DNA from: an uncultured Propionibacteriaceae bacterium
Lineage (GTDB): Bacteria > Actinomycetota > Actinomycetes > Propionibacteriales > Propionibacteriaceae
Direction: 5' to 3'
DNA: 64,000 bases
Assembly (NCBI GenBank): GCA_938046585.1
Contig: CALIWR010000005.1
Coordinates: forward strand, 69,799 to 133,798
Shown here one piece after another: positions 13,527 through 64,000 of this stretch (the stretch's first letter is position 1; each line of letters opens with the position of its first letter). Position numbers and translations under genes: made by a program. The notes beneath the pieces are model-generated. The model ran no database searches and had not been told where the DNA came from. It was given only the letters and a program-made list of their open reading frames with translations.

Positions 13527-16091
<2,565 letters not shown>

Positions 16092-16183
16092 GATCGGGCA
16101 CACCTTACGGCTGGGACCGTGGTCTGGGGTTACGGGGGTCCCCAGTTGCCGTGGCTGGGCACGGGGAGGGCGGTCATCACCTG

Positions 16184-16797: not shown

Positions 16798-17097
16798 TCA
16801 GCCTTTCCTAGTCAACGTCGGGGTGGTGTGCTCAAACGAGACGTCGTAGCCGAACCCGAAGGCGACGATGTACGTAATGCCCAGGCCGATCGCGACGATG
16901 ACGATCAGGAAACAGACCCCTGCCAAGACTGTTCCGACCGGATGGGGGCGTTCCTGGCTGATCTCAGCGTCGCCGCCCTTGCCGTAGGCGAGGGCGCGGA
17001 CCCCCATGGCGAATACGTTGGGCAGGCCGGCTCCCAGTAGGAGCGAGGCCAGGAGCACTCGCCAGGCGCCCTCAAGGGCGAGGTAGACATTATTCAT
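16798..17097 (-). CDS. small two-TM membrane protein, translationally coupled to pit
   Basis: 99 aa with two hydrophobic helices. Its ATG overlaps the pit stop codon (ATGA). Confidence 0.5.
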   Translation of the reverse strand: MNNVYLALEGAWRVLLASLLLGAGLPNVFAMGVRALAYGKGGDAEISQERPHPVGTVLAGVCFLIVIVAIGLGITYIVAFGFGYDVSFEHTTPTLTRKG

Positions 17098-18296: not shown

Positions 18297-18480
18297 GGGC
18301 TCAGCCTGCCACCCGGACCGTGGTTCGGTGAAATGGGTCGCAGTCTGGCAGGATGAGAATCGCGGTATCGCTCAGCAGAGCTACCGGCGTATGGAAAGTT
18401 CTGCCAGCACGGCAGATCTGGTTGTCGAGAGGCTGTGCCGTGGTCCGGTGGTAGCGCCGGGTGGCGACGACAGCGATAGT

Positions 18481-25063: not shown

Positions 25064-25543
25064 GACGGGGTCGATTCCAAACAAGCGGGCGCCACCGGCA
25101 CGGCCATCCGATGCCGCTCACGGCATCGTCCGGCGTGCTCGAGTGGATGAGACCGCCAGTGAATCGGTCGTTCCTGATCGGTAGGGCCACGTTCATGGGG
25201 GGTGGCCGCAATGGGCAACAAGGTGGTCGCTACTGTGGGTAGTGGGCGGCCAGACACTGGCGTCTTGCCGCCGCTTCATCATCTGACATCCGGGATCGAA
25301 GGTGCGTGTGGGGCTCGGCATCTCGGTACTCACAGCCAGAAACATCCCGGACAGGGAATGAGGGAGCACCCAGCAGGAAGCGCGGGCCGGCCCTGGGCGC
25401 CTACGATCACGGTGGGGACAGTGGCGGGCAGGATGTCCGCAGCCGGCTGTGCCCGCTACCACGAACGTGAGGAGCCGACCGTCGATGACCGTGCCAGCTA
25501 GCCTGTTCGCCCTTGCCCGGCCCGGCAAGGTAGGGGACCAGCG

Positions 25544-33430: not shown

Positions 33431-34957
33431 CTAGGTGATGACTATCGCCTTTTCTGGGTCGCTGCTGCGCTCGACGTCAGGCAGGCCGTCGCGGACGATC
33501 CAGACCGTTACCGACAGCTTCTTGCCCCGGTCAGCGGCGGTTGGGACATACCAGCGTTGGGTTGCTCCTGGCACCGGCTTGCCGTCGATCTTCCACTGTT
33601 GGCGCATGTCCTTCACGTATGGGTACCAGCTGTTGGAGAAGGCCTGCGCCTTCGAGCCGACCGTGGCCGGACCGTTGAACTTGACCTCCGGCTGCCCCTC
33701 CAGGGCGGGAACCAGGATCTGGGCGCTGGTGCGGACCGCGGGGGCGGCCCCGGCCTGGGACGCGGTCACGCTCACCGACAGGTGATGGAAGACATCCGCC
33801 TGGCTGATCTGATAATCGGTCTTGGTGGCGCCGGGAATCGGCTGCCCGTCGCGTCGCCACTGGTAACTGATCGTCGCGGGAGCCGGGACGAAAGCCCGGT
33901 GGTGGACCTGAAGAGTAGAGCCGAGAGCCACCTTTCCCGTGATCGCAGGATTCGGGTGAGACGACCATCCGTCGACACCAGGCAGCTTCCAGTCGGGACG
34001 AGCGACAAAACTGAGTTCCCCCATGGGGATCTTCGTGATCGGCTCTTGTACCACCCCGCCTGGGGTCTTGGGGCCGTAGGAGTGGATTACCTGTTTGTTC
34101 CCGACATAGACCGCGGTGTGGTACACGTTGCCGAAGAAAGCTCCGGTGTTCTCATCTTTACCCTCGGGCCGTTGGCGAGAGAAGAACAGAATGTCCCCGA
34201 CGGCCAGCTGCTTAACCACCTCATTCGGATCCTGCGATGAGGGCAGCCACAACCGCTGGTTGTTCTGGAACCACAGCGCCAATCGGTTTGCGCCCACCAT
34301 CCGGGAGGTGCCTTGCTCCTTGCCGAAGTCAATCGCCGCCCCGACGACGGTATTCTGGTCTGCCACGTACGTCGTCGACGAGTAGCTGTACCCGTACAGC
34401 AGCATCGCCGCGAAGTTGCTGCAGGTGATCGGATACGGGGGCTGTTCTTTGTACAGCTTGTGCACCGGTTCTGCGGTCATCAACGGAGCCTTGCGCTTCG
34501 CATCCCAGATCAGATTCCTGCCCGCGGCCACGAAAGTCTGTGCCCGGGCAACGACGTCGTGGGTGGTCTGGTCTGGGGCGGCCGCCGCCGGCACGTCACG
34601 CCGCAACTGAGCCGGTACGGCGAAACGGCCGTTCTGGAGCGGGATCCCGATCCGCTGTAACGATGTCTCGGCGGGCGGCGAGTCCAGGATCTGGAAAAGC
34701 TGGGGGAAACCGTCGTTCCAGGTCGCGGACCCCCTGGTCCACACCAGACCCGGCAATGCGGTTGCCCGCTTGAGATCCTCGGGGGTGTCGAGGGACAGAA
34801 TCGGTTGGGTGGTGGACTGTGCGGCGGGAGAGGCCGAGACCGACGCCGTGCCGTTCGCGCCCGGTGTCCGTGCGATGACGGCCTGGGCGGAAACGGTAGC
34901 GACGCCGGCGCAGGTCAGCGTGATCCCCGTAGCGACAGCAATGATGAAGCGCTTCAT
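33431..34957 (-). CDS. secreted NlpC/P60-like (C40 peptidase-like) protein with two C-terminal Ig-like repeats
   Basis: Signal peptide (MKRFIIAVATGITLTCAGVATVSAQA), a central region with Cys and His candidates (ITCSNFAAMLLYGYSYS ... GNVYHTAVYVGNKQVIHS) and two tandem ~45-aa repeats (QWRRDGQPIPGATKTDYQISQADVFHHLSVSVTA and QWKIDGKPVPGATQRWYVPTAADRGKKLSVTVWI). Confidence 0.6.
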   Translation of the reverse strand: MKRFIIAVATGITLTCAGVATVSAQAVIARTPGANGTASVSASPAAQSTTQPILSLDTPEDLKRATALPGLVWTRGSATWNDGFPQLFQILDSPPAETSLQRIGIPLQNGRFAVPAQLRRDVPAAAAPDQTTHDVVARAQTFVAAGRNLIWDAKRKAPLMTAEPVHKLYKEQPPYPITCSNFAAMLLYGYSYSSTTYVADQNTVVGAAIDFGKEQGTSRMVGANRLALWFQNNQRLWLPSSQDPNEVVKQLAVGDILFFSRQRPEGKDENTGAFFGNVYHTAVYVGNKQVIHSYGPKTPGGVVQEPITKIPMGELSFVARPDWKLPGVDGWSSHPNPAITGKVALGSTLQVHHRAFVPAPATISYQWRRDGQPIPGATKTDYQISQADVFHHLSVSVTASQAGAAPAVRTSAQILVPALEGQPEVKFNGPATVGSKAQAFSNSWYPYVKDMRQQWKIDGKPVPGATQRWYVPTAADRGKKLSVTVWIVRDGLPDVERSSDPEKAIVIT

Positions 34958-35003
34958 CGACTGCTCCTGGTGGTGGACGGCCGAATCTGGCTGTTGGGCT
35001 GAT

Positions 35004-35077
35004 GCGTGCCCCGAGCCAAGCACGTGCTCGGGGCACCTGGCAAGCCTCGCTGGTGATTGGCCAGATCACCGGCTCCC
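35004..35077. promoter_or_regulatory. two palindromes in the divergent NlpC/P60-fabG1 intergenic region
   Basis: Perfect 11-bp inverted repeat GTGCCCCGAGC-n9-GCTCGGGGCAC (35004-35034) and a second near-palindrome GGTGAT-TGGCCA-GATCACC (35058-35077) between divergently transcribed genes. Confidence 0.35.
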
Positions 35078-46114: not shown

Positions 46115-47020
46115 GTGAGTGATGACACCACCGGGCATCGTTCCCACCGGGACTTGGCCCGGGAACGGGTGGACCGGGTCAACGAGCGGGCCGGGCGGAA
46201 TCTGCCGGCAGCGGTGGGAGTGGCGGTCGGTCTGATCGGCTACGTGATCGTCACCCTGCTGTTCTTCAAGGCCGGCTTCATGCTGCTGCTGGCCGTCGGG
46301 ATGGTGCTGGGGTCGATCGAATTGCACCGGGTCCTCAGAGCCCAGGCGCAGATGACCTCGGCGGTGCTACCGATTTGCATCGGCACCGTGGCAATGGTGG
46401 CCGGCTCGTACCTGGCCCACGAGGGCGAGACCCTCTTCACCCCGACTACGGTGCTGATCATTGCGCTGGGGGTGACGGTGTTGGCGGCGCTGGCCTGGCG
46501 TCTGCCGGGCGGCTCGACCGGTTTCGTCCGGGACGTGGCGGCGAGCATGCTGACGATCGCTTATATTCCGCTGCTCGGTTCATTTCTGGCGCTGATGGTG
46601 GGCACCCCAAACGGCGGCTCGCGGATCACTACCACCATCCTCTGTGTCGCCGCCAGTGACACCGGCGGCTGGTTGGCCGGGGTGCTCTTCGGCAGACACC
46701 CGTTGGCGCCCAGGATCAGCCCCAAGAAGACCTGGGAGGGGTCGATCGGTTCGTTGCTGTTGTCGCTGGCGGTCGGAGCGGTAATGGCCCACCAGGTGCT
46801 GCGGATTCCGGTCGGGCTAGGTCTGGTCTTCGGGGCCGCCATGGTGGTTTTTGGCACCCTGGGGGACCTGGTCGAGTCCCAGCTGAAGCGGGATCTGGGA
46901 ATCAAGGACATGAGTCACTTCCTGCCTGGTCATGGCGGGGTGCTGGATCGGGTGGACTCGCTGCTGTTCGCCGCCCCGGTGGCCTGGGGCCTGCTGCACC
47001 TGATGGTGCCCGGTGGCTGA
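46115..47020 (+). CDS. cdsA: phosphatidate cytidylyltransferase
   Basis: Multi-TM protein with the CDS signature [11 protein letters not shown]...[30 protein letters not shown]. Confidence 0.9.
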
Positions 47021-48200
47021 GCCGGTACGGCTGCGGCTGGCAGCGCCGGCCCGAGGCAAACCACCTCGCCACTGGGCTGACCTGACCGTGGCCGAACGCG
47101 CTCCGGCGGTCGTCGCGGCCGGGCTGCCGAGGTTTCGCGCCCAGCAGCTGGCAACCCACTACTACGAGCACCTGTCGGTGGACCCGCAGACCTGGACCGA
47201 CCTGCCGAAGGACCAGCGCCAGACGGTCCGCGAGGTCTTCTTCCCGCCCCTGCTCAGCCACGTCCGGCAGGTCTCCTGCGACCGGGGAGCCACCGTCAAA
47301 ACCCTGTGGCGGCTTCACGACGGCAGCTTGGTCGAGTCGGTCCTGATGCGGTACGGGCTACGCCGCGACGGCAGCCCGGGCTCGAACGGGATCCGCAGCA
47401 CCCTATGCGTTTCCTCCCAGGCTGGTTGTGGCATGGCCTGCCCGTTCTGCGCCACCGGGCAGGGCGGGCTGCAGCGCAACCTGTCGGCCGCTGAGATCGT
47501 GGACCAGGTTCGGGCCGCGGCGGCGATCCTGGCCACCGGTGACCTGCCCGGGGGAGCGGGCCGGCTCACCAACGTGGTTTTCATGGGGATGGGGGAGCCG
47601 CTGGCGAATTATCGAGCCCTGATCACCGCCATACGAGCGATCACGACAGCGGTGCCGCAGGGGCTGGGGATTTCCGCGCGAGGCCTCACCGTGTCCACGG
47701 TAGGGCTGGTACCCAGGATCCGGCAGCTGGGCACAGAGGGGTTGCCGGTGACCCTGGCGGTGTCATTGCATGCCCCCGACGACGAACTGCGCGACAGTCT
47801 GGTACCGATCAACACCCGGTGGCCGGTGGCCCAGGTGGTGGATGCGGCCTGGGAATATGCCCGGACCAGCAGACGGCGGGTTTCGATCGAGTATGCCCTG
47901 ATCCGCGACATCAACGACCAGGCCTGGCGAGCCGACCGGCTCGCCGAGGTACTGGCCGCGCGAGGCGATTGGGGTTGGGCGCACGTCAACCTGATCCCGC
48001 TGAATCCGACCCCTGGTTCGAAGTGGACCGCATCGCGGCCCCAGGCCCAGGACGATTTCGTCCGACGCCTCGAGGCGCATCGGATCCCGGTCACCGTCCG
48101 CGACACCCGAGGCCGTGAGATCGACGGCGCCTGCGGCCAGCTCGCCGCCCGTCAGCGCGGTCAGGGCGCCGGGGATCGCGTACCGACGAACCCGGGCTAG
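47013..48200 (+). CDS. rlmN: 23S rRNA/tRNA m2A methyltransferase RlmN (radical SAM)
   Basis: [18 protein letters not shown] (CxxxCxxC radical-SAM cluster) and downstream Cys in the GMGEPLAN region. It overlaps the cdsA stop. Confidence 0.9.
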
Positions 48201-48263
48201 GGGCTGCTAGCTGCTAACCGTGGCAAGGGATGGGCCGCCCTCGCGAGCGTCAGTTCAGCGCGG

Positions 48264-51200
48264 TTGAATGGGTCCATGACACTCCAGCCCGCCGAAGTGT
48301 ACCTGCGACTTGCGCTGACCGGCCTGCCGGTCCCCGAGAACGCCGCCGAGACGGCGCACCTGATCGACCCGATCATCGCTCGGCAGCGAGAACTGAACCG
48401 GCGCCTGGCCGACCGGCTGTGCCCGGCCGACGCCCGGATCCAGCGTTTCTTGGATTCCTACTTCGAGGGGATCGACGAACGCCCGCAGCTGCCCCGGCGA
48501 AGCCTGGTGCTGGACTGTCCCGGGCTGGCCCGGACCCTCTCGCTGCCGGCCAACGCAGACGCTTTCACCTCACCGCTGTTGTCGAGCTACCGGCTCGCCA
48601 ACGGCGTGCTCCACAACCCGGCCAACGATCGGCGGACCACGGCCGGGGTCTTCCACATCAGCGAGGGCGGCAGCCCGATCCCTGACGACAAGCTGGCGGT
48701 GCCGCGTGAGGTCTTCGCCCGGATGCTGGTGAGGGCCTTCCAGCCCCCGGAGTCGGCGATGGAATTGCCGTACACGGCGGGGATGGCCGAGCCGGCCCGC
48801 TGTTTTGTGTCGCTTCTGCTGCGTCCCCTGGTGGTGCCGCAGGTGCCGGGCTATTCGCAGGCCAAGACCATGGAGACCAGGTTCATCGTCCCCGGCGGAC
48901 TGGTCGCCAACCTCGACTTCGTCGAGTCGGTCTTCGGTAACGCCGGCGACCCGTACCTGCCCGAGAATGACGCCACCCTCGACCAGGCCACCTTTACCGG
49001 CACCACCGGTTGCGTGATCCTGGCCCCGCATCTGACCCGGCTCACCAAGAAGGAACTGGGCCTGCCGCATATCGACCAGGCCACCGAGCGGCAGCGGCGC
49101 GACCAGATGTGCTGGTCTGACGAGGACGAGCTGTACAACAACGGCCAGGCCTTCAAATGCTGCGCCCGTGACGAGCGGGGCGTGATCGTCACCGTGATCG
49201 CCGACAACTACTTCGGCTACTGCAAGAAAGAGGTCAAGACCCAGCTGTCGTACTCGGCTAACTTGATCGGAGGTGTCGAGGAGGAACACTCCGGTGGCGC
49301 GGTGGTCTTTGCCTCGTACAACAACGGGCAGGAGTTTACCGAGCACACCCCGGACGGCTATCACCTGGATGATGTCGTGGCCCGCGACCCGGAACGTTTC
49401 GCCTGCCAGCCCGAAGGTCACGCCCTCGACCTGATGCAGCCGCGGATCGTGCTGGTCCCCGCCAACGCCACCTTCTCGCTGCGGACCCAGACCATCAGCT
49501 GGCCAGCGGCTGACGGGGTGGCCACGATCCAGCTGCGAGCCGACCGCAGCTACCTATCCCCAGTCGGTTTCCGTACCGAGATGCGTCAGATCGCGGCTGA
49601 CGGTAACCAGTGGAGCCTGATCTCGACCCAGCCGATGCCGACCACCTGCCACAAGCCGGCCACGGTGTCGGGCGGTGGCAAGTCCGAGATCAGCAAAGCG
49701 ATCTCGGATGCCATCATCCACGGCAACGCTTACACCGCCGACTACGACGCCGACATGGAGCAGGTGGCGGCGATCCTGGACGCGGACCTGTCCGGTCGGT
49801 TTAAGGACCCGGATCGGCGTACCGACACCCGGCCGATCCTGTCTGACCAGCGCTCGGTCGGCAGCGTGATCAAGCTGCTCACCCCAAGTTCGGTGGAGTA
49901 CACCGACGAGTACAACGACTGGCTGGCCTCGATCCCGCAGCACATCAAGGAACTGGTCTTTGTCATCAAGCGCTTCTACCGGCCCGAATGGGGAGCTGAC
50001 TGGCGCAGCCATTTCACCGTGGGGATCATGAACGGCCGCAAGGGCAACGCCCTTCGCCTGGATGGGGAACGGATCCAGGTCAACACGCTGCGGGTCGGCT
50101 TCGACGAGGACGGCTCTTGGCGGATCTTCGGGCTGCGGCACGACTTCAACCCGGCGATCAAGGTGCAGACCGAGGACGACATCACCGCCTCGATCGTGGC
50201 CCCGCCCGGTGCGGCCCGGACCTGGCCGACGGTCTCCCGCAAATTCGTCGCGAACTGCGAACAGCTGCTCTTCCAGCGTCCCGATGACGCCATCCACCGC
50301 GGCTACGACACCCAAGCCGAGCTGGACATCTCCCAGCCAGGCACCTTCCTGTCCAACTTCCAGCCGCTGGACCGCGACGACGCGATCGCGATGCGTGACG
50401 ACGCGATCGGCTACCACGCCTTCACCGAGCCGATGCGTCGCCTGATCGGACAGGTGGCCGACGGACAGGTCAGCGAAACCTATTTCGTCTCCTCAGCCAA
50501 TCCCCGGCTCGTCGGCGGCAAACCTTCGAAGAACCCCCGCTACCTGCAGCAGCGCCCGGACCTTTCCCATCCGGTGTCAACCGAGATCGCGGACGTCGCG
50601 GTGCACCTGCTGTGGCGGGTGCCGCTGTCGGAGCAGATCGCGCTGCCGGTGGACCTGGTTGCCGCCGGGCGGCGCAACAACCCGGCCGAACCGGGAGTGG
50701 CCCCGTTGTGCGCGTACAACCCGCTGCACTACATGGAACTGCCGGAGCTGTTCATGGAGTTCATCAGTTCGATGACGGGAAAGTCGCCCTCGACCACCGG
50801 CGCCGGCTCCGAAGGGGCCATGACCAAAGGCCCGTTCAACGCCATGCCCACGGTGTACGACTTGAACGCGGCGCTGCTGTCGTACGCGCTGACCGGCTAC
50901 GACGGCTGGCTGTCGGCAGCCGGCTATGTCGGGCCCAAGGTTCGCGTCGATCATGACGTCAGCCTGCTGGTGCCGGAAGTCTTCGCTCGGATGACAGCGC
51001 AGGAGCGCTCGGCTCAGGCCCTGATCGAGAACGGCTGTCTGGAACGGATCAGCGACATCACCTACCAGGGTCGCCTGGTCCGGGCCAGCCGGCTCGGCTA
51101 CCGGATGACCGCTCGGTTCGCCCGCTGGTACTTCGGTCGAATCTTCATGCATCCGCATGTGGTGTTCACCCCCGAAATGCTGGCCCCCGAGCTGCAAGAC

Positions 51201-51659
51201 CTGGAGGCCTACTGCGAATCGGTCGACACCATCGTCACCACTCACGAGCGGGTTGCCCAGGCCTACCTGCGCGACGGCTCGATCGAGCAGGCCTGCCCGC
51301 CGCTGCGGGCCCTGCTGGAGATCATGGCCCAGGGCCAGTCGCGGGAAGGCTGGGACCTCACCACGGCTGACTTCCGCCGGCTCTTCGAGAGGGACACCAT
51401 CCTGGCCAGCGACTGGTACGCGGCCCGGCTCGACTCGCAGCAGGACGCCGATGTGCGCCACATCGAGCGGGGGATCGCCACCATGGAGCACTTCCTGCAG
51501 CGGGAAGGCAATGAGGAGGCGGCCAGCCGGATCGGTCTGGAGCAGCGGCTGGCGCGTTCCCGTGACGAATTGCGGTGGCGCCGTTCGGCCGAGTACCGGG
51601 CACAACTGGTGGGTGCCCTGGGCCGGCAGCCGCTGGCGCTGCCGCCGGCTGGGTTCTGA
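48264..51659 (+). CDS. very large (1131 aa) uncharacterised cytoplasmic protein
   Basis: Single uninterrupted ORF with coding-like composition. No TM or signal peptide and no recognised catalytic family. Contains one P-loop-like stretch ATVSGGGKSE. The start is ambiguous: TTG 48264 or ATG 48276. Confidence 0.6.
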   Translation: MNGSMTLQPAEVYLRLALTGLPVPENAAETAHLIDPIIARQRELNRRLADRLCPADARIQRFLDSYFEGIDERPQLPRRSLVLDCPGLARTLSLPANADAFTSPLLSSYRLANGVLHNPANDRRTTAGVFHISEGGSPIPDDKLAVPREVFARMLVRAFQPPESAMELPYTAGMAEPARCFVSLLLRPLVVPQVPGYSQAKTMETRFIVPGGLVANLDFVESVFGNAGDPYLPENDATLDQATFTGTTGCVILAPHLTRLTKKELGLPHIDQATERQRRDQMCWSDEDELYNNGQAFKCCARDERGVIVTVIADNYFGYCKKEVKTQLSYSANLIGGVEEEHSGGAVVFASYNNGQEFTEHTPDGYHLDDVVARDPERFACQPEGHALDLMQPRIVLVPANATFSLRTQTISWPAADGVATIQLRADRSYLSPVGFRTEMRQIAADGNQWSLISTQPMPTTCHKPATVSGGGKSEISKAISDAIIHGNAYTADYDADMEQVAAILDADLSGRFKDPDRRTDTRPILSDQRSVGSVIKLLTPSSVEYTDEYNDWLASIPQHIKELVFVIKRFYRPEWGADWRSHFTVGIMNGRKGNALRLDGERIQVNTLRVGFDEDGSWRIFGLRHDFNPAIKVQTEDDITASIVAPPGAARTWPTVSRKFVANCEQLLFQRPDDAIHRGYDTQAELDISQPGTFLSNFQPLDRDDAIAMRDDAIGYHAFTEPMRRLIGQVADGQVSETYFVSSANPRLVGGKPSKNPRYLQQRPDLSHPVSTEIADVAVHLLWRVPLSEQIALPVDLVAAGRRNNPAEPGVAPLCAYNPLHYMELPELFMEFISSMTGKSPSTTGAGSEGAMTKGPFNAMPTVYDLNAALLSYALTGYDGWLSAAGYVGPKVRVDHDVSLLVPEVFARMTAQERSAQALIENGCLERISDITYQGRLVRASRLGYRMTARFARWYFGRIFMHPHVVFTPEMLAPELQDLEAYCESVDTIVTTHERVAQAYLRDGSIEQACPPLRALLEIMAQGQSREGWDLTTADFRRLFERDTILASDWYAARLDSQQDADVRHIERGIATMEHFLQREGNEEAASRIGLEQRLARSRDELRWRRSAEYRAQLVGALGRQPLALPPAGF

Positions 51660-51702
51660 TCGGCCGAGCCGCTCCAAGGCCTCAGAGGTCGAGCCGATCA
51701 GG

Positions 51703-51731
51703 TGGATCTGGGCGCCCGTCGGACGCCCAGA
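51703..51731 (+). terminator. hairpin downstream of the 1131-aa gene
   Basis: Perfect 10-bp inverted repeat GATCTGGGCG-cccgtcgga-CGCCCAGATC starting 44 nt after the stop. No U-tract follows. Confidence 0.3.
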
Positions 51732-51963
51732 TCTGAGCGCCTGCAGCAGCCAGGCCGCCAGGACGCTGGTCCAGTGGTTGCGTCCCGCCAGGTGCTGGTC
51801 GACCTTTTCCAGGATCTCAGTCTCGACGATCCTCGACAGCGGGGAGGAGCAGTCACGCGGATAGGCTGCTCGAGCCGCCGTGAGAGGAATGCCATGACTG
51901 ACGCTGGCAGCGCCCCAGAGGCGGTACCCTCAGCACGACACCCGGCCCTAAGGAGCACGACGC

Positions 51964-52344
51964 ATGTTGGACGTGGAACTGTCCCAGCTCGACAGCGCGG
52001 TCAGTGAACTGCAGGCGCAGCTGCGCGACGGCCTGGTCGCCGCCGACATCCTGGACCTGACCAGCGGCATCAGCCTGGCTGGGTTCAACGCGAACCCAGC
52101 TGCGACGGCGATGTTCCCGCTGATGGCCGACCAGATCAACAAGATGCTGGAGGGGATCGCCTACCCCGAGCTGAACCGGTTCTTCCTGCTCGATCTGCAC
52201 AGCGACCATTCCCTGGTCGTGGTCCGATCCGGCGACGACCTGTTAGCCACTTTGCTGATCGACAACACCAAGACCACACTCGGGGTACTGCTCGGCGTCG
52301 CGATCCCACGGGCCCTGGCCAATATTGACGCTGCCCGGCGTTGA
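51964..52344 (+). CDS. Roadblock/LC7 (MglB-like) domain protein
   Basis: 126 aa. AAGGAG RBS 7 nt upstream of the ATG. The pattern ILDLTSGISLAG...FFLLDLHSDHSLVVVRSGDDLLATLLIDNTKTTLGVLLGVAI parallels the MglB/Roadblock alpha-beta core (..DNRTSLGLVRLRI.. in MglB). Confidence 0.5.
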   Translation: MLDVELSQLDSAVSELQAQLRDGLVAADILDLTSGISLAGFNANPAATAMFPLMADQINKMLEGIAYPELNRFFLLDLHSDHSLVVVRSGDDLLATLLIDNTKTTLGVLLGVAIPRALANIDAARR

Positions 52345-52352
52345 ACCCAGCC

Positions 52353-53519
52353 GTGCGTGACGTCATCCTGCTCGGCTCGACCGGGTCGATCGGCACCCAG
52401 ACCCTCGATGTCGTCGGCCGTCACCGGGGCCGCTTCCGGATCGCGGGGCTGGCCGCCGCAGGTAGCCAGGTCGAGCTCCTGGCCGACCAGGTACGCCGCT
52501 TCGCGCCACCCGTGGTCGCTGTTGGTAGCGACCGGGCGGCGGCCCAGCTGCGGGCCCTGATCGGACCACAGACCACGATCTGGGCTGGTCCTGACGCCGC
52601 AACCCGGCTCGCCGGCTCCCGGTGCGATGTGGTGCTGAACGCCATCACCGGATCGGCCGGGTTGCTGCCCACCCTGGCTGCCCTGGCCGCAGGCACCACC
52701 GTGGCCCTGGCCAACAAAGAGTCGCTGGTGATTGGCGGTCGGCTGGTCACCGAGGCGGCTGCGCCCGGGCAGATCGTGGCCGTCGACTCAGAACACTCCG
52801 CCTTCGCCCAGGCCCTGCGAGCCGGACGGGCCGACGAAGTGCGCCGTCTGATCCTGACTGCCTCTGGCGGACCGTTCCGGGGACGTAGCCGGGCCGACCT
52901 AGCCGAGGTCACCTACGACCAGGCGATGGCTCACCCCACCTGGGCGATGGGCCGGGTGATCACGATCAACTCGGCGACCCTGGTCAACAAGGGACTGGAA
53001 CTGCTCGAGGCAGGGCTGCTGTACCAGACCCCACTCGACCAGATCACGGTGGTGGTACACCCCCAGTCGGTTGTCCACTCGATGGTGGAATTCTGCGACG
53101 GCTCCACCATCGCCCAGTGCTCACCGCCGGACATGCGGCTGCCGATCGCGCTCGGGTTGACCTGGCCGCAGCGTCTGCCGGACGCCGCCGCGGCCTGTGA
53201 CTGGACCCAGGCCGGTTCGTGGACCTTCGAGCCGCTCGACGCCGAGGCCTTTCCCGCCGTTGAACTGGCCCGGCGCTGCGGGATCGCCGGTGGCACTGCG
53301 CCAGCGGTTTTCAACGCCGTCAATGAGGTCTGCGTGGACGCCTTCTGCGAGCAGCGGCTGTCCTTCCTGGGGATCGTCGACACCGTAGCCGCGGTTGTCG
53401 ACGAGCACCTGGCCAGGCCCGACATAGACTCCCTGAGCGTCGAGGCGGTCCTCGCCGCCGATGCCTGGGCCCGCGACCGGGCCGTCCGGCTGACCAGCCG
53501 GCCGGTTGGAGAGGAGTAG
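52353..53519 (+). CDS. dxr: 1-deoxy-D-xylulose 5-phosphate reductoisomerase
   Basis: ILLGSTGSIGTQTLDV (NADPH-binding N-terminus), LANKESLV and SEHSA motifs. GTG 52353 gives a canonical N-terminus; the TTG at 52341 overlaps the upstream stop. Confidence 0.9.
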   Translation: MRDVILLGSTGSIGTQTLDVVGRHRGRFRIAGLAAAGSQVELLADQVRRFAPPVVAVGSDRAAAQLRALIGPQTTIWAGPDAATRLAGSRCDVVLNAITGSAGLLPTLAALAAGTTVALANKESLVIGGRLVTEAAAPGQIVAVDSEHSAFAQALRAGRADEVRRLILTASGGPFRGRSRADLAEVTYDQAMAHPTWAMGRVITINSATLVNKGLELLEAGLLYQTPLDQITVVVHPQSVVHSMVEFCDGSTIAQCSPPDMRLPIALGLTWPQRLPDAAAACDWTQAGSWTFEPLDAEAFPAVELARRCGIAGGTAPAVFNAVNEVCVDAFCEQRLSFLGIVDTVAAVVDEHLARPDIDSLSVEAVLAADAWARDRAVRLTSRPVGEE

Positions 53520-53520
53520 C

Positions 53521-54786
53521 GTGAACATCCTGCTGATGATCGTGGCCGCGATCGGGTTTTTCGTCCTGATCCTGGTCTCGATCGCGCTTCACGAAGTGGG
53601 GCATATGGTGCCTGCCAAGAGATTCGGGGTCCGGGTCTCGCAGTACTTCGTGGGCTTCGGCAAGACCATCTGGTCGAAACAGGTCGGGGAGACCGAGTAC
53701 GGGCTGAAACTGATCCCGCTTGGCGGCTATGTCCGGCTGGTGGGGATGTTCCCGCCCGAGTCGAAACGTCGTACCGGTCGGCTCGCCCAGATCGCTAACG
53801 AGGCCAGGGCAACCGAGTGGGAGACGATCACCCCCGACGACGTCCGCGATCAACGGCTCTTCTACCAGAAAAAGACCTGGCAGAAACTCATCGTGATGTT
53901 CGGCGGGCCGTTTATGAACATCCTGCTCGCCTACGGGATCTTTCTCGGCATCAACCAGTTCCACGGGCAACTGCAGTCGACGCTGCAGATCAAGTCGGTC
54001 GTTGCCTGCGTCACCGAAGCTCCTGCCGCCTGCGTCGAGTCGCCGGCCAAGGCCGCCGGGGCTCAGCCCGGCGACACGATCGTCGCCTTCAACGGGCAGC
54101 CGGTGTCGCGGTGGAGCGACCTGGTGACCCTAGTCCGGGCCAATGGCTCCGGCACCGTCCGGCTTACTGTGGACCGGGGCGGGCAGCGGATCGACCTCAC
54201 ACCGGTTCCCGGCGCGGTACGCACGATGGCCGCGCTCGACGACCCGACCAAAACGGTGGAGGCAGGTTTCGTCGGGGTGCAGCCGAACTCCGCCCTAGTT
54301 CGGGTCGGCCCGGTCCAGACCGCGATCGACATGTGGGACCTGACCCGCCAGAGCGTGGTGGCCCTGATCGGCTTCCCAGCTAAGGTCATCACCACCGCCT
54401 ACGACCTGGTCACCGGAAAACCGCGGGACGTGAACGGCCCGATTAGCGTGGTCGGGGCGTCTCGGGCGGCGGGGGAGATCGCCACCACCGAGCGCTTGAC
54501 CACTCAGTCCCGGATCGCGTCGTACTTTTCGCTGCTGGCCGGGGTGAACCTGTTTGTGGCGCTGCTCAATCTGGTGCCGCTGCTGCCCTTCGACGGCGGG
54601 CATATCGCGGGGGCGCTGTGGGAGGGGCTGCGTCGCGCGGTGTCTCGGCTGTTGCGCCGCCGCGACCCCGGCTACGTCGACACCGCCCGCTTGCTGCCGG
54701 TGGCGTATGTTGTAGGGGGTTTTCTGCTGTTCGCCGGCGCGGTGCTGATCGTGGCCGACATCATCAGTCCCGTCCGCATCTTCTAA
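53521..54786 (+). CDS. rip1: site-2 protease (M50 zinc metalloprotease Rip1/RseP) with PDZ domain
   Basis: HEVGHM (HExxH) in TM1, a PDZ region (GAQPGDTIVAFNGQPV) and LDG motif NLVPLLPFDGGH. GTG start with GGAGAGGAG RBS. Confidence 0.9.
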   Translation: MNILLMIVAAIGFFVLILVSIALHEVGHMVPAKRFGVRVSQYFVGFGKTIWSKQVGETEYGLKLIPLGGYVRLVGMFPPESKRRTGRLAQIANEARATEWETITPDDVRDQRLFYQKKTWQKLIVMFGGPFMNILLAYGIFLGINQFHGQLQSTLQIKSVVACVTEAPAACVESPAKAAGAQPGDTIVAFNGQPVSRWSDLVTLVRANGSGTVRLTVDRGGQRIDLTPVPGAVRTMAALDDPTKTVEAGFVGVQPNSALVRVGPVQTAIDMWDLTRQSVVALIGFPAKVITTAYDLVTGKPRDVNGPISVVGASRAAGEIATTERLTTQSRIASYFSLLAGVNLFVALLNLVPLLPFDGGHIAGALWEGLRRAVSRLLRRRDPGYVDTARLLPVAYVVGGFLLFAGAVLIVADIISPVRIF

Positions 54787-54801
54787 CGCATCAGGAGTCT
54801 C

Positions 54802-55953
54802 GTGGCTGCCGTCAATCTGGGGATGCCGAAGGTGGCCCCCCCCGTCCTCGCCCCTCGCCGCAAGACCCGACAATTGAAGATCGGCAAGGTGCTCGTGGGA
54901 GGCGACGCGCCGGTCTCGGTACAGTCGATGACCACCACCAAGACCACCGACATCAACGGCACCCTGCAACAAATCGCCGAGTTGACCGCCAGCGGCTGCG
55001 ACATCGTCCGGGTCGCCGTCCCCAGCCAAGACGACGCCGATGCGCTGCCGATTATCGCGAGGAAGTCACAGATCCCGGTAATCGCCGACATCCACTTCCA
55101 GCCCCGCTACGTCTTCACCGCGATCGAGGCCGGCTGCGCCGCGGTCCGGGTCAATCCCGGCAACATCAAAGCCTTCGACGACCGGATCGGCGAGATCGCC
55201 CAGGCCGCCAGCGAGGCTGGGGTGAGCCTGCGGATCGGGGTGAACGCCGGTTCGCTCGACAAGCGGCTGCTGGACAAGTACGGGGGCCCTACCCCGGAGG
55301 CGCTGGTGGAATCTGCCCTGTGGGAAGCCTCGCTGTTCGAGGAACACGGCTTCCGGGACTTCAAGATCTCGGTCAAACATCACGACCCGGTGGTGATGGT
55401 GCGGGCCTACGAACAACTCAGCGAACGGTGCGACTATCCGCTGCACCTGGGTGTCACCGAGGCCGGGCCGGCCTTCCAAGGCACCATCAAATCGGCGGTC
55501 GCCTTCGGGACCCTGCTGGCCCGCGGGATCGGCGACACGATCCGGGTCTCGTTGTCGGCGCCGCCGGTCGAGGAGGTGAAGGTCGGGGTCAAGATCCTGG
55601 AGGCACTGAATCTGCGCCCCCGGCACCTCGAGATCGTCTCCTGTCCTTCTTGCGGTCGGGCCCAGGTCGACGTGTACACCCTCGCCGAACAGGTCACCGA
55701 AGGCCTGCAGGGGATGGAGGTGCCGTTGCGGGTGGCGGTGATGGGCTGCGTCGTGAACGGCCCCGGCGAGGCCCGCGAGGCTGATCTGGGAGTGGCCTCC
55801 GGCAATGGGAAGGGCAAGATCTTCGTCCGCGGTGAGGTGATCAAAACAGTGCCCGAGGACCAGATCGTCGAGACCCTGCTAGCCGAAGCGAACCGGCTGG
55901 CCGAGGAAGTGGGCGAAATTGAGGGCAGCGCCCCGGTAGTCAGCGTCGTCTGA
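54802..55953 (+). CDS. ispG: 4-hydroxy-3-methylbut-2-enyl diphosphate synthase
   Basis: [10 protein letters not shown]-terminus and C-terminal [4Fe-4S] Cys triad (SCPSCGRA ... [10 protein letters not shown]). Confidence 0.95.
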
Positions 55954-56789
55954 TGCCCGGCACCATCCGTACCCTCACCAACGCTGACCTGACCGACGCG
56001 GTCAGGGTGTTGATCCAGCGCCCGTTCGAGAACGCCTTCGTCGCCTCCCGGGTGCGTGTCGGCGGGCTCGAAGCGTTCACGCTGGGTTGCGAGATGTGGG
56101 GCTACGAGGAAGACGGCCGATTGGTGTCGCTACTGCACCACGGCACCAACCTGGTCCCGATCAACGCCACGCCGGCCGCGCTGGACGCGTACTGTGCCGC
56201 GCTCGGCCCGGTCCGCTGCTGTGCCTCGATGGTAGGAGTCTCCGGCGAGGTACTCGGCCTGTGGGATCGGCTGGTGGACCGCTGGGGTAAACCCTGGGCC
56301 CAGCCCCGTGAGATCCGGCGCCACCAGCCGCTGCTGGCGTTGTCTGGCCCGCCCCGCGTCGCCCCCGATCCGCAAGTGATGCGGGTTGGTCTGGACCACG
56401 CCGACAGCTACTTCGAGGCGGCGGTTGCGATGTACACCGAGGAGGTCGGGGTCTCACCGCTGGACGGCTCGAACAGTTACCGCTGGTACGTGGAGCAGCT
56501 GATAAAACAGGGCCGGGCGATGGGAATCGTGGACCACGGCCGGGTGATCTTCAAGTCCGATGTCGGCTCGGCGACCACCGACGTCTGCCAGGTCGCCGGG
56601 GTATGGCTACGGCCGCAGCTGCGGGGGCAAGGCCGGGCCGTGGCCGCGATGGCAGCTGTCGTGGAACTGTGCCGTCAGGAATGGACCCACGTGACCCTGT
56701 ACGTGAACGACTTCAACATTGTGGCCCGCAAACTGTACCAGCGGGTAGGCTTCGAGCAGGCTGGGGAACTCGCCACGATCATGTACTGA
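55953..56789 (+). CDS. GNAT-family N-acetyltransferase (DUF4081 + acetyltransferase, Rv2867c-like)
   Basis: C-terminal acetyl-CoA motif LRPQLRGQGRAVAAMAAVV...LYVNDFNIVARKLYQRVGF. Immediately follows ispG (ATG overlaps the stop), as in mycobacteria. Confidence 0.75.
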   Translation: MPGTIRTLTNADLTDAVRVLIQRPFENAFVASRVRVGGLEAFTLGCEMWGYEEDGRLVSLLHHGTNLVPINATPAALDAYCAALGPVRCCASMVGVSGEVLGLWDRLVDRWGKPWAQPREIRRHQPLLALSGPPRVAPDPQVMRVGLDHADSYFEAAVAMYTEEVGVSPLDGSNSYRWYVEQLIKQGRAMGIVDHGRVIFKSDVGSATTDVCQVAGVWLRPQLRGQGRAVAAMAAVVELCRQEWTHVTLYVNDFNIVARKLYQRVGFEQAGELATIMY

Positions 56790-56803: not shown

Positions 56804-57313
56804 CTACCCGAAGATCACGGCCAGCAAGATGATCAGAGTTGGGAGCCCGAGGATGACTCCCAAGATCCCGAGCGTAATGCCCAGCCCCCGGCGTTTCTGC
56901 GGCTCGAAACCGAGGGCGCCCGCGGCGAACTGGTGAAACGGCGGGGCATACCAGAGGCGGATCTGCTGCCCCGGTTCCGGATTGAGGTTAATCTCTGCCT
57001 TACCGAAGGTGACCAGCCACTGCATGCTGATGCCCAGGTGCAGAGGACCGGCCGGCACCGGGATGGTGTTCAGGCCGTAGTTCAGGGTCCGGGGGAAACC
57101 GTTCAGGGTGGCCGAGGGCGGGACGATGCTGCTGCTCAGCATGCTGCCCTGCACTGTGAGCTGGATCACCGCCGGCTGGCTCGCCACATTCGCGTTCCCC
57201 TGCGGAAATCCCGGCTGCGGCTGAGGGGCGGGGCCCGGCTGGGGCTGCCCGTACTGCGGGGTTGGTGTGGGATTCGGCTGAGGCTGTTCGTACGGCTGCG
57301 GCTGGTAAGTCAC
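56804..57313 (-). CDS. proline/glutamine-rich membrane-anchored protein
   Basis: N-terminal PQP repeats (QPQPYEQPQPNPTPTPQYGQPQPGPAPQPQPG), a central globular segment and a C-terminal TM helix (GITLGILGVILGLPTLIILLAVIFG). Confidence 0.55.
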   Translation of the reverse strand: MTYQPQPYEQPQPNPTPTPQYGQPQPGPAPQPQPGFPQGNANVASQPAVIQLTVQGSMLSSSIVPPSATLNGFPRTLNYGLNTIPVPAGPLHLGISMQWLVTFGKAEINLNPEPGQQIRLWYAPPFHQFAAGALGFEPQKRRGLGITLGILGVILGLPTLIILLAVIFG

Positions 57314-57442
57314 GGGGGCTCATCTTAGAGGGCGGTGATCCTCAGCTAGTCCTGAGGCCAACGACAGGTTCTTCACAGGTAGGAACTGGATCGTTGGTAG
57401 GGAAATCGGGCCGCGGCCCATCGCTCACACCGAAGAGGAGAC

Positions 57443-60884: not shown

Positions 60885-61611
60885 AGCTGTCGGCAGCGAG
60901 CCGGGGCTGCGGTTTGAGGCAGTCAGCCACCGATATGGGCGGCGGGGGAGACCGGTCATCGACACTCTCTCGTTCGTGCTCCAGGTCGGGGTCACGGGTC
61001 TTGTCGGCGTCAACGGCGCCGGAAAGACCACCCTGATCCGGATGGCGGCCGGGGCGCTGGCCCCGTGGCGGGGAACAGTGTCCTGCGGCGACGCTGATCT
61101 GTACCGGGACCAGCGCCGCCGGGGCCTGTCTCGGATCGCCTGGATGCCGCAGACCGCGCTGTCAGTGCCGGGACTGACCGCTCACGAGCTCGTTACCTAC
61201 ACCACCTGGATGCGGGGCTGTTCGTGGACCGAGGCCCGTCGACGGGCCACGCAGGCCCTCGACGCGGTCGAGCTCAGCGCCCGCGCCAGCTCACGTACCG
61301 GTCGGCTCTCGGGCGGGATGGTGAGACGGGTTTGGCTGGCGCAGGCTCTGGCTGCCCAGTCGCAGGTGCTGCTGCTAGACGAACCCAGCACCGGGCTGGA
61401 TCCTCGGCAGCGGGCCACTATGGTCCGGCTGCTCGGGCAGATCACCGACCGCGTGGTGCTGCTGTCGAGCCACATCCTGGAGGACGTGGCCGAGCTGGCG
61501 GACCGGGTTCTGGTCCTGGACCAGGGCCGGATCGTCTACGACGGTGACCGCCCGGCCTGTCTGGACGCCGCCTGGTTCCAGCGCCAGACCGGGGCTGGGG
61601 GTGAGCCGTGA
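60868..61611 (+). CDS. ABC transporter ATP-binding protein
   Basis: Walker A GVNGAGKTT, signature LSGGMVRRVWLAQAL and Walker B LLLLDEP. ATG 60868 is preceded by GAGG and overlaps the 3' end of the peptide gene by 17 nt. The longer 5' ORF is rejected. Confidence 0.8.
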   Translation: MSVPRRAVGSEPGLRFEAVSHRYGRRGRPVIDTLSFVLQVGVTGLVGVNGAGKTTLIRMAAGALAPWRGTVSCGDADLYRDQRRRGLSRIAWMPQTALSVPGLTAHELVTYTTWMRGCSWTEARRRATQALDAVELSARASSRTGRLSGGMVRRVWLAQALAAQSQVLLLDEPSTGLDPRQRATMVRLLGQITDRVVLLSSHILEDVAELADRVLVLDQGRIVYDGDRPACLDAAWFQRQTGAGGEP

Positions 61612-62390
61612 GACCGCTGGGGCTGTGGCTGCGCAGCAGCTGGTGGCTGAGCCCGATGATGCTGCTGGCTTTCGGCTCGGGACTGCTGCGGGGCAGTGCG
61701 TGGCGGTGGGACTGGTCGTGGATGTTCTCCCTGGTCACCGGCTCCACCCTGCTGGCATCGCCGCTGCTGGCCACGGCGGCGGTGGTAGTGATGCTGCGCT
61801 CCTACCCGCGGGGGCTGCTGGACCTGACGAGCGTCACGCCCCGCGGCGGCTTGGTTCCGTTCCAGGCCGGGGCGGCGTTGTGGCTGCAGGCGATGCTCAG
61901 CTATGCGCTCTGCCTGGGGGTAGGCGCCTACTGGTGCCAACAGTACGAGGCAGACCAGCGCGGGCTGGTTCTGCCCTGGCAGTTGCTGACCGCCCCGGCG
62001 GCCTTGGCGGCTGCGGTGGCGCTGGGATTGCTGGTGGGACTGCTGGTGCGTTCGCCCTGGGCGGTTCCGGCGGTGACCGTCGGGCTGTTTCTCGGCCACC
62101 GTCCGCTGTACTGGACGTCGCTGCCTGAGCTGGTAACCCTCACGATGGCGACCGGGTCGATGGCGAATGCTGGATTCCGCCCGGCGCCTTCGCACCTGGC
62201 CGCCACGGTAGCGGTGAACCTGCTGCTGGCGCTGGCGGCCTGTGCGCTGCTGCACCGCTTCGGCCACCCGAGCGGGGCCCGGCCCCGACGCTGGCTGGTA
62301 ATCGCGGCGGCGCTCCTGGCGGCACTGCTCGTCGTGATGGGGTGGGGCTGGGGTGATGCCTACCAGCCGATCCCGGCATCACCGGCATGA
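61608..62390 (+). CDS. integral membrane protein (ABC-2-type permease-like, ~6 TM)
   Basis: 260 aa, highly hydrophobic, overlaps the ATPase stop (GTGA). Likely permease partner. Confidence 0.6.
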   Translation: MRPLGLWLRSSWWLSPMMLLAFGSGLLRGSAWRWDWSWMFSLVTGSTLLASPLLATAAVVVMLRSYPRGLLDLTSVTPRGGLVPFQAGAALWLQAMLSYALCLGVGAYWCQQYEADQRGLVLPWQLLTAPAALAAAVALGLLVGLLVRSPWAVPAVTVGLFLGHRPLYWTSLPELVTLTMATGSMANAGFRPAPSHLAATVAVNLLLALAACALLHRFGHPSGARPRRWLVIAAALLAALLVVMGWGWGDAYQPIPASPA

Positions 62391-62998
62391 TCTGGGTGGT
62401 GGCCCGGGCCCGGGGCCTGCTGATCTTCGCCGGGGTGCTGCTGGCCAGTGCTGTGGCGGCCTGGGTAGCTGGCCGGGTACAAGCCAACCTGCCGCTCGCC
62501 GACGGGCCCCGCTACCTGCGGCAGTACCTGGTGGCCTTCCTGCCGGCCGGGATGGGCCCGGCCCTACCCGACCGGCTGCCGGGGCTCTCGGCCACCTTGC
62601 TGCGGGAGCCGCTGCTGCGCCGCTGCACCCTGCTGCTCTACTGGGGTGGGCTGGGGCTTGTGCTGGGCCCGGGTTGGGTTTCTCGGCCCGGCCAGCTGAC
62701 GACGTACGAGATCATGACCTGCCTGGTGCTGGGGACGGTGGTGCTTGCCGTCACCGCCCGCTGGGGGGTCCACGGGGTGCTGGTCGGGCTGTTACTCGGG
62801 CTGGTCTGGATGCTGGCCGGGGATTCGATCGGAGTCGCGATCGGCTTTCCCGGTATCGCTTTCCAGCGCCCCGGCGACCCGGAGCTGGGCGTGGCCAGCC
62901 ACATCCCGGTCCTGCTGGGCGCCGCTGCGTTCGCGGCGGCTGCCGCCAGCGTCGGGCTACTGCGATCCACCCGTGTCGCCGCCGACGAGCAGGCCTGA
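62387..62998 (+). CDS. second integral membrane protein of the cluster
   Basis: 203 aa, ~5-6 TM, ATGA overlap with the preceding gene. Confidence 0.55.
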   Translation: MIWVVARARGLLIFAGVLLASAVAAWVAGRVQANLPLADGPRYLRQYLVAFLPAGMGPALPDRLPGLSATLLREPLLRRCTLLLYWGGLGLVLGPGWVSRPGQLTTYEIMTCLVLGTVVLAVTARWGVHGVLVGLLLGLVWMLAGDSIGVAIGFPGIAFQRPGDPELGVASHIPVLLGAAAFAAAAASVGLLRSTRVAADEQA

Positions 62999-63021: not shown

Positions 63022-64000
63022 GTGAGCAAAACCTGGCCGGGCGTACAAGGTGAACTCGCCCTGGCCGGGCTACGCGACGCGGACCCCACCGGCCTGCTCG
63101 CGCAGATCGACCGGATCATCGTCTGGGATCTGCCGCTGCGGACCCGCTTTCGAGGCCTGACCCGCCGCAATGGCCTGCTCCTGCACGGCCCCCTAGGCTG
63201 GGGCGAGGTCGCCCCTTTCTGGGACTATGACGCGCCGGCCAGCGCCCCTTGGCTCGCCGCCGGCCTAGAACAGGCGACGAGCGACCTTACGAGCCTGCCC
63301 GTACATCGCGCGCAGATCCCCGTCAACGTCACCATCCCTGAAGTCGATGGCGACACGGCTCGGGACCTGGTCGCCGCCGCTGGCGCGACCACCGCCAAGG
63401 TCAAGGTCGCCGGGTCCGACGACAGTCTCGCCGCCGACCTGGAACGGCTCGCCGCCGTACGCGCTGCGCTCGGACCGCAGGGACGGGTACGCATCGACGT
63501 CAACGGGGCCTGGGACCTGGCGACCGCCAAGACTCTTCTGCCGCGCCTGGACCGGGAGGCCGGTGGCCTGGAATACGTCGAACAGCCCTGCCGGGAGGTG
63601 ACCGAGCTCGCCGCCCTGCGGCGCGCCCTGGACATCCCGATCGCCGCGGACGAGGCCATCCGGCTGTCTGCGGACCCCGTGGCAGTCTGCCGACTGGGGG
63701 CCGCCGACATCGCGGTACTCAAGGTCGGGCCGCTGGGCGGGATCCGACGAGCCCTGGCCCTGGCCGAGAGACTGGGGCTGCCCGCGGTTGTCTCGTCTGC
63801 CCTGGACACGAGTGTCGGGCTAGGGGCGGGCGCTGTTCTCGCCGCCGCTCTACCCGATCTGGGATACGCCTGCGGTTTGGGGACCAGCAGCCTCTTGGCA
63901 GCGGATGTGGCGTTGCCGTCGGTCGTGCCGCGTGGCGGCTTGTTGCCGCTGCGACCGGTCGAGGTTTCGGAGCCGCTCCTCGCCGCCGCCGGGGCCGGCG
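63022..64000 (+). CDS. menC: o-succinylbenzoate synthase (enolase superfamily), 3'-truncated at window edge
   Basis: Translation aligns throughout with actinobacterial MenC: VWDLPLRTRFRG, TAKVKVAG, VRIDVNGAWD (Mg ligand), EYVEQPC, IPIAADEAIR, AVLKVGPLGG, VVSSALDTSVG. No stop occurs before the window end. GTG start is uncertain. Confidence 0.8.
   Translation, partial: MSKTWPGVQGELALAGLRDADPTGLLAQIDRIIVWDLPLRTRFRGLTRRNGLLLHGPLGWGEVAPFWDYDAPASAPWLAAGLEQATSDLTSLPVHRAQIPVNVTIPEVDGDTARDLVAAAGATTAKVKVAGSDDSLAADLERLAAVRAALGPQGRVRIDVNGAWDLATAKTLLPRLDREAGGLEYVEQPCREVTELAALRRALDIPIAADEAIRLSADPVAVCRLGAADIAVLKVGPLGGIRRALALAERLGLPAVVSSALDTSVGLGAGAVLAAALPDLGYACGLGTSSLLAADVALPSVVPRGGLLPLRPVEVSEPLLAAAGAG

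Follow-up and report, generated by a model that had tools for sequence, protein, structure and literature searches.

The subject of this analysis is the interval between rlmN and dxr in a 64,000-nt stretch of DNA from an uncultured Propionibacteriaceae bacterium (assembly GCA_938046585.1, contig CALIWR010000005.1, positions 69,799 to 133,798 of the forward strand), hereafter called the window and meaning that whole stretch. A sequence-only reading of the window had described the interval as a single inserted module, in which a giant orphan protein of 1131 aa and a Roadblock/LC7-like partner of 126 aa might serve a novel signalling or defence function. Both open reading frames (ORFs) are real and lie where that reading placed them. 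With a probability of roughly 0.88, the 4-kb interval is nevertheless not one module, and instead holds three unrelated items: a housekeeping gene encoding a pyrophosphate (PPi)-dependent phosphoenolpyruvate carboxykinase (PEPCK), the remnant of a LOG/SLOG-like gene, and a Roadblock-fold gene belonging to the dxr operon. With coordinates taken from the window's ORF list and its translations, the locus is laid out as follows.

47013-48200, plus strand: ORF of rlmN (radical-SAM rRNA/tRNA methyltransferase), the left flank and last gene of tsf-pyrH-frr-cdsA-rlmN.
48264-51659, plus strand: full-length PPi-dependent PEPCK (EC 4.1.1.38), identified by phmmer against PDB sequences.
49668-49688, plus strand: SGGGKSE codons (residues 469-475), a family-invariant signature of PPi-PEPCK.
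51660-51863, minus strand: remnant of a LOG/SLOG-cluster-4 gene, delimited by tblastn, blastn breakpoints and translation.
51705-51733, no strand assigned: GC-rich hairpin with 14-nt arms, from fold and repeat analysis.
51950-51955, plus strand: Shine-Dalgarno sequence AAGGAG, 8 nt 5' of the ATG of the 126-aa gene and conserved in the closest relative (L001).
51964-52344, plus strand: 126-aa gene with an ATG start and a predicted Roadblock/LC7 fold, heading the dxr-rip1-ispG operon in this clade.
52341-53519, plus strand: dxr (1-deoxy-D-xylulose 5-phosphate reductoisomerase), whose start overlaps the stop of the 126-aa gene (TTGA) by 4 nt.
53506-56789, plus strand: rip1 (M50 site-2 protease), ispG (GcpE) and a DUF4081-GNAT gene, the remainder of the conserved downstream operon.

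The large ORF (plus strand) encodes 1131 aa from a TTG start; an in-frame ATG at codon 5 (48276), where the L001 homologue also has Met residues, is the likelier beginning of the protein. The sequence-only reading had found no family motif in it and called it an orphan. Scans of the protein against Pfam (Pfam-A) and NCBIfam are indeed empty, yet phmmer against PDB sequences matched it at E = 0 to two solved structures, 6k31_A (AiPEPCK of A. israelii; 1556 bits) and 8e1u_A (PPi-dependent PEPCK of P. freudenreichii; 1520 bits), and both alignments are colinear, laying query residues 10-1123 on chain residues 11-1150. The family scans came back empty because no InterPro family for PPi-PEPCK existed as of a 2020 review, which describes the enzyme, also known as PEP carboxytransphosphorylase (EC 4.1.1.38; PEP, phosphoenolpyruvate), as one with a propionibacterial history and a patchy distribution (PMC8100219). 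The missing family match is a gap in the databases and carries no novelty, and it offers a general lesson: a long protein without a Pfam or NCBIfam match was mistaken for an orphan, and its identity is settled once it is compared with the sequences of proteins of solved structure.

With one genome scanned per species, 209 PEPCK relatives came to light, of which the best 80 were used for all locus comparisons. These best 80 are 61-90% identical to the 1131-aa protein and come mostly from Propionibacteriaceae, then from Actinomyces and Rhodocyclales (Accumulibacter, Propionivibrio); the closest homologues (68-90% identity) are Propionibacteriaceae without exception, and the locus of A. israelii DSM 43320 (L061) stands at 62%. 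The one stretch that had been singled out as P-loop-like, ATVSGGGKSE near residue ~470, does lie at residues 466-475, and its nature is that of an invariant PPi-PEPCK signature: xTVSGGGKSExSK is kept in 80 of the 80 homologous loci, and SGGGKSE is identical in AiPEPCK. In PEPCKs, the phosphoryl donor (PPi in this class) is bound by a P-loop-like "kinase-1a" motif, and we take PPi binding to be the role of SGGGKSE in the 1131-aa protein. Judged by its sequence, this protein is an unremarkable orthologue of an enzyme of central metabolism that is known and has been characterised structurally.

As such, it would interconvert PEP, CO2 and phosphate with oxaloacetate and PPi, using neither ATP nor GTP. 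In propionic-acid bacteria, PPi-PEPCK is known classically as PEP carboxytransphosphorylase, and the enzyme would presumably act here as it does in propionibacteria, converting PEP to oxaloacetate and conserving the energy of PEP as pyrophosphate, or else in the reverse direction. The window also encodes an H+-translocating membrane pyrophosphatase (13530-16253, minus strand; Pfam H_PPase, 595 bits), which fits a PPi-based role of the PEPCK. Near the H_PPase gene lies a PHO4 phosphate transporter gene (17097-18371). Together, the H_PPase gene, its PHO4 neighbour and the PPi-PEPCK point to a pyrophosphate-based energy economy, and the PEPCK and H+-pyrophosphatase mark the uncultured host as a PPi-economy organism, as would be expected for its group.

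Between the stop of the PEPCK gene and the 126-aa gene lie 304 nt (51660-51963), previously described as a hairpin followed by a 300-nt spacer. The hairpin and the gap are both present, but the spacer is not empty: it holds a degraded minus-strand gene. By tblastn, the LOG-like proteins of L001 and of two other relatives (L081 and L085) match the minus strand of the window at 51791-51666, a segment that corresponds to residues 333-375 of the 376-aa L001 protein, that is, its last 43 residues (56% identity, E 2e-8). The L001 protein itself matches Pfam LDcluster4 and Lysine_decarbox. In blastn comparisons, window positions 51690-51778 align with L001 12542-12633 (the 3' end of the LOG gene), and position 51787 onward aligns with L001 13566 onward (its 5' end and the intergenic region), so that ~930 bp of the gene body are missing here. 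What is left is ~25 N-terminal and 43 C-terminal codons fused in frame, RIVETEILEKVDQHLAGR followed by NHWTSVLAAWLLQALRSGRPTGAQIHLIGSTSEALERLGR, without a start codon. Given the deletion of ~930 bp and the loss of the start codon, the LOG/SLOG-like gene is a dead pseudogene. We considered the remnant as a translated ORF and rejected it, the frame having no start codon before 51677 and then running on antisense to the PEPCK gene.

The hairpin (51705-51733) lies within this remnant, 46 nt past the PEPCK stop; its arms are 93% complementary, and the fold to which it belongs scores z = -2.6 relative to shuffles. It has no T-run, the terminator scan made no intrinsic-terminator call, and in L001 the corresponding bases form a poorer palindrome; it may be a terminator or an RNA-stability element. 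A promoter scan of the locus found no sigma-70-like promoter.

The 126-aa ORF is a genuine gene, and selection acts on it. It has 15 close homologues, all of 126 aa except one of 121 aa that aligns over 59% of the query, and the 14 full-length ones were aligned. Its dN/dS ratio is 0.08-0.31, indicating purifying selection, and between the window and L001 its product is 94% identical where Dxr is 85% identical. Conventional searches of the protein yielded little: Pfam gave no match at E <= 1, NCBIfam was likewise empty, and phmmer against PDB returned only chance-level matches to actin and FtsZ. AlphaFold2 run with only the 15 close homologues gave a model of pLDDT 51, which was not used, a deeper alignment being needed. 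With a 78-sequence alignment, it returned a confident model (pLDDT 93.6, pTM 0.85) of topology alpha-beta-beta-alpha-beta-beta-beta-alpha, for which Foldseek retrieved MglB at TM 0.74-0.77 and E 1e-7. The predicted structure thus bears out the guess, made before from secondary-structure pattern, of a Roadblock/LC7 (MglB-like) fold. The family is Roadblock by this predicted fold only and is separate at the level of sequence; its profile, run against PDB, found no Roadblock chain and only a spurious match to a designed WD-repeat protein.

Searched with a family profile, 1.8 billion cluster representatives yielded 317 family representatives (at 50% identity). Among 153 classifiable members, 69 stand alone (~124 aa) and 67 form the C-terminal domain of a longer protein; all eight of the C-terminal-domain proteins scanned carry PATAN/DUF4388, seven as REC plus PATAN and one as PATAN alone. 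In one further member the domain lies N-terminal to a dCache domain. At locus L089, a REC-PATAN gene stands immediately upstream of a family member, with canonical Robl_LC7 and V4R genes nearby, and its protein matches the window's 126-aa gene by tblastn (E 3e-12). On a metagenome contig of 68% GC (L090, 1240-3437), a homologue that is 37% identical belongs to a four-gene operon together with a 243-aa protein lacking a Pfam match, a 187-aa small GTPase (PF03029 / Roc / Ras-like, 33.7 bits) and a 141-aa canonical Robl_LC7 protein; the operon lies downstream of a XerC-like recombinase gene. The remaining gene contexts of distant members were uninformative. We found no published description of this family or of the C-terminal domain of REC-PATAN proteins in the literature on PATAN with Roadblock and on DUF4388.

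With respect to genomic position, the 126-aa gene is the first gene of the dxr-rip1-ispG operon, with its own Shine-Dalgarno sequence and translational coupling to dxr. In the close homologues examined, it invariably overlaps dxr or lies within 10 nt upstream of dxr-rip1-ispG. On the contigs inspected for such homologues (P0014, 66% identity; P0008, 74%; loci L081-L086), it sits in L081-L086 always 5-10 nt upstream of dxr-rip1-ispG-GNAT, and a LOG-like gene lies divergently on its other side in these relatives' contigs. By analogy with other Roadblock proteins, the 126-aa protein is most likely a small dimeric binding or regulatory subunit whose partner would not be encoded nearby; candidates for that partner are a small GTPase whose gene lies elsewhere, in line with the L090 context, and a product of the 126-aa gene's own operon.

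The second of these options can be put more sharply, namely that the protein is an adaptor or regulator of its operon's own products, be it Dxr and IspG of the methylerythritol phosphate (MEP) isoprenoid pathway or the site-2 protease Rip1, with no distant GTPase involved. The unvarying position directly upstream of dxr-rip1-ispG in the close homologues, a conservation under purifying selection that exceeds that of dxr itself, and the lack of a GTPase gene among the window ORFs scanned all speak for such a role. On the other hand, only one narrow clade (the 15 close homologues) shows the link to dxr, and distant members lack it, standing instead beside REC-PATAN genes or small-GTPase and Roadblock genes. 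We regard this explanation as possible, though less likely than not. A broader proposal would unite both contexts: the family would be an uncharacterised Roadblock-fold output or partner-binding domain of REC-PATAN regulators and small-GTPase modules, recruited in this clade as a coupled leader of dxr-rip1-ispG and linking a Roadblock regulator to MEP isoprenoid synthesis or to Rip1 proteolysis. This is a rather doubtful proposition at present; if true, it would amount to a new regulatory connection, and one unconnected to the PEPCK gene.

A perfect 15-nt inverted repeat, GGCTGGGTTCAACGC / GCGTTGAACCCAGCC, occurs at 52077-52091 and 52338-52352, its arms 246 nt apart, one inside the coding region of the 126-aa gene and the other over its stop and the start of dxr. 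Only a 6-7-nt core (TCAACGC / GCGTTGA) is found again at these positions in L081, L085 and L086, and there is none in L001. In the mRNA, the repeat could occlude the dxr start until the 126-aa gene is translated; it may also be due to chance.

How the PEPCK gene came to lie in this interval is a separate question. Window rlmN is 82% identical to that of L001 (tblastn), the syntenic rlmN homologue in L081 carries Pfam Radical_SAM, and the dxr orthologue of L081 matches Pfam DXP_reductoisom. Of the five related genomes compared, four cover the complete rlmN-dxr interval, and its content differs in each. The genes between rlmN and dxr, or upstream of dxr in the case of L085, are as follows.

Window: PEPCK gene, LOG remnant, 126-aa gene.
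L001: ABC gene, PEPCK gene, GH2 gene, MFS (major facilitator superfamily) gene, LOG gene, 126-aa gene.
L081: ROK gene, LOG gene, 126-aa gene.
L085: a gene set unlike the others, rlmN being absent from the nearest 8 kb.

In L001, the genes between PEPCK and the 126-aa gene encode a GH2 protein (599 aa), a polytopic membrane protein of 437 aa that is MFS-transporter-like as judged by sequence alone, and, on the minus strand, a LOG/SLOG-cluster-4 protein (376 aa); compared with L001, the window lacks the GH2 and MFS genes as well as an ABC-ATPase gene between rlmN and PEPCK. The interval is a hot-spot of gene gain and loss; all that stays constant in it is the 126-aa gene with dxr after it. Extra DNA between rlmN and dxr is thus confirmed relative to some relatives, but the "conserved rlmN-dxr junction" into which it was said to be inserted is not a feature of the relatives compared. 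A further relative, L002, has two copies of the final 27 nt of rlmN (window 48122-48148), one at the end of rlmN (4389) and another at 5903-5929; the second copy, 96% identical, lies ~70 nt upstream of PEPCK, and the two flank ~1.5 kb that is missing from the window. This duplicate may have been left behind by an insertion or duplication event at the hot-spot.

One explanation for the placement is that the PEPCK gene arrived recently as a foreign island, transferred horizontally on a mobile element. The position differs from that in 77 of the 80 homologous loci, the content of the interval varies among relatives, and PPi-PEPCK is patchily distributed, occurring also in Betaproteobacteria. The extra DNA is real, but the marks of a mobile island are missing. 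The GC content of both genes matches that of their neighbours, as does their GC content at third codon positions (GC3: PEPCK 0.87, 126-aa gene 0.83, neighbours 0.83-0.86). A tRNA scan found no tRNA gene in the 64 kb, flanking direct repeats at the locus are only short matches at chance level, and an Rfam search of 47800-52600 gave no match. Neither an integrase nor a transposase lies beside the PEPCK gene; the sole integrase-family gene found is XerC-like and sits 6.5 kb upstream, beyond rpsB-tsf. Moreover, the nearest homologues of the PEPCK all come from Propionibacteriaceae, and its location after rlmN is limited to a small clade of that family (window, L001 and L002). Since L001 and L002 share it at 13-25% nucleotide divergence, the placement predates their split. 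A recent foreign origin is improbable on this evidence. That diverged genomes share the placement and that the nearest PEPCKs belong to the same bacterial family points rather to an old relocation within the lineage.

The supposed pairing of the two genes was examined by tblastn of the window's eleven local proteins, with the 80 PEPCK loci and their 6-kb flanks as targets. Within 6 kb of PEPCK, the 126-aa gene has a homologue in a single locus, that of L001, where this homologue is 4.4 kb downstream and overlaps dxr. In three of the 80 loci rlmN adjoins PEPCK (L001, L002 and L026), and only in L001 (PEPCK 90% identical) and L002 (75%) is it upstream on the same strand. In the third, from a Candidatus Nanopelagicales metagenome-assembled genome (L026, 6001-10585; PEPCK 66% identical), the PEPCK gene stands convergently beside rlmN-cdsA-frr-pyrH-tsf, and the adjacency, with its different gene order, looks like an independent recurrence. 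All-against-all clustering of the flank ORFs found no neighbour family in more than nine of the 80 PPi-PEPCK loci, and those at up to nine loci reflect genus-level synteny only.

A single signalling or defence module made up of the large protein and the Roadblock protein, and inserted as a unit between rlmN and dxr, is thus very unlikely, for all that the two genes are co-oriented and 304 nt apart in the window, that the predicted Roadblock fold is borne out, and that relatives of the 126-aa family do occur in signalling contexts. The large protein is a metabolic enzyme of a structurally solved kind; in the closest relative, three genes (GH2 glycosidase, MFS transporter and LOG-like) separate the pair; no copy of the small gene lies within 6 kb at 79 of the 80 PEPCK loci; the small gene remains with dxr where PEPCK is absent, no PEPCK gene being found at its site in L081-L086; and in the window itself an opposite-strand pseudogene lies between the two. 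The gene-neighbourhood survey that the sequence-only reading had itself proposed therefore found no conserved PEPCK-Roadblock linkage, an outcome which that reading had named as decisive against its module. In effect, the neighbourhood data already refute the module, and the proposed two-gene unit does not exist. Weaker still is the idea of the large protein as a P-loop NTPase (ATPase or GTPase) with the Roadblock protein as its GTPase-activating-protein-like regulator, for GGGKSE, which is invariant and resembles Walker A (GxxGKS), belongs to a protein alignable from end to end with enzymes whose structures were deposited under the name PPi-dependent PEPCK, and the Roadblock gene has no genomic linkage to PEPCK.

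Several points weigh against the account of three unrelated items, or against the parts played in it by each gene. The L026 recurrence could hint at a weak preference of PEPCK for the rlmN site. The activity and physiological direction of the PEPCK are deduced from 62% identity to characterised enzymes, and co-transcription of the 126-aa gene with dxr is suggested by their spacing. For the role of the 126-aa protein, none of the 78 aligned family members, the window protein included, matches Pfam Robl_LC7 (PF03259), and hhalign of the family against a Robl profile gave a non-significant probability of 2%, the template being thin at two sequences. Finally, in agreement with what had been noted before, no small GTPase or kinase gene lies near the 126-aa gene among the window ORFs scanned, a scan that did not take in every ORF.

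Elsewhere in the window, four ORFs (33434-35065, minus strand; 56807-57319, minus; 61605-62995, plus; 63268-63819, minus) are coding-like with GC3 of 0.80-0.87 and match no Pfam family at E <= 1e-5. A 648-aa protein encoded at 25502-27445 (plus strand), downstream of suf Fe-S cluster genes, has an N-terminal DUF6270 (127 bits).

Set against what is already known, the large gene encodes one more orthologue of an enzyme that was known before, and the small gene is, by fold, a divergent member of the known Roadblock superfamily in a family without a Pfam model. The lead worth keeping is this Roadblock-fold family with its clade-specific coupling to dxr, and a domain definition for it may be deserved. 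The PEPCK resembles its structurally solved counterparts in nearly every respect: it is 1131 aa long against 1153 aa for AiPEPCK (6k31) and 1131 aa for the P. freudenreichii enzyme (8e1u), it is colinear with both from residue 10 to residue 1123, it shares ~62% identity with the A. israelii locus, and its SGGGKSE is unchanged. It shares with the classical propionibacterial PPi-PEPCK the bacterial family of its host. It differs from known PPi-PEPCKs in genomic position only, lying directly 3' of rlmN here and in two close relatives, whereas the other loci examined have different, non-conserved neighbours. The remnant beside it matches both ends of a LOG/SLOG cluster-4 "lysine decarboxylase-like" orthologue of 373-376 aa (PF18306, PF03641); in L001, L081 and L085 this orthologue is intact and lies upstream of the 126-aa gene in divergent orientation, and the window copy differs from it by its ~930-bp deletion and absent start codon.

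Comparison of the 126-aa protein with known systems is less straightforward. It has the predicted fold and the size of MglB (M. xanthus, T. thermophilus), CvnB of the Streptomyces conservon (3kye, 3leq), Asgard Roadblock proteins and LAMTOR/Ragulator, but it is only 13-18% identical to these Roadblock/LC7 proteins (PF03259). Like MglB-type systems, some members of its family are encoded beside a small GTPase gene and a canonical Roadblock gene, and the L090 operon resembles a conservon without its kinase and with two kinds of Roadblock protein; unlike the MglB and CvnB systems, the window has no mglA/cvnD-type GTPase, cvnA kinase or DUF742 gene near the 126-aa gene. The four-gene cvnABCD arrangement is likewise not present, the neighbours being PEPCK, the LOG remnant, dxr, rip1 and ispG. 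The closest likeness is to REC-PATAN (DUF4388) response regulators, to whose C-terminal ~120 residues the protein is homologous over its full length (E 1e-22 to 1e-12), with Pfam confirming REC plus DUF4388 upstream of that domain. In contrast to these regulators, the window protein stands alone, with no PATAN or REC gene among those window ORFs that were scanned (not all of them were), and among the family members looked up it is only the window-type gene that is translationally coupled to dxr.

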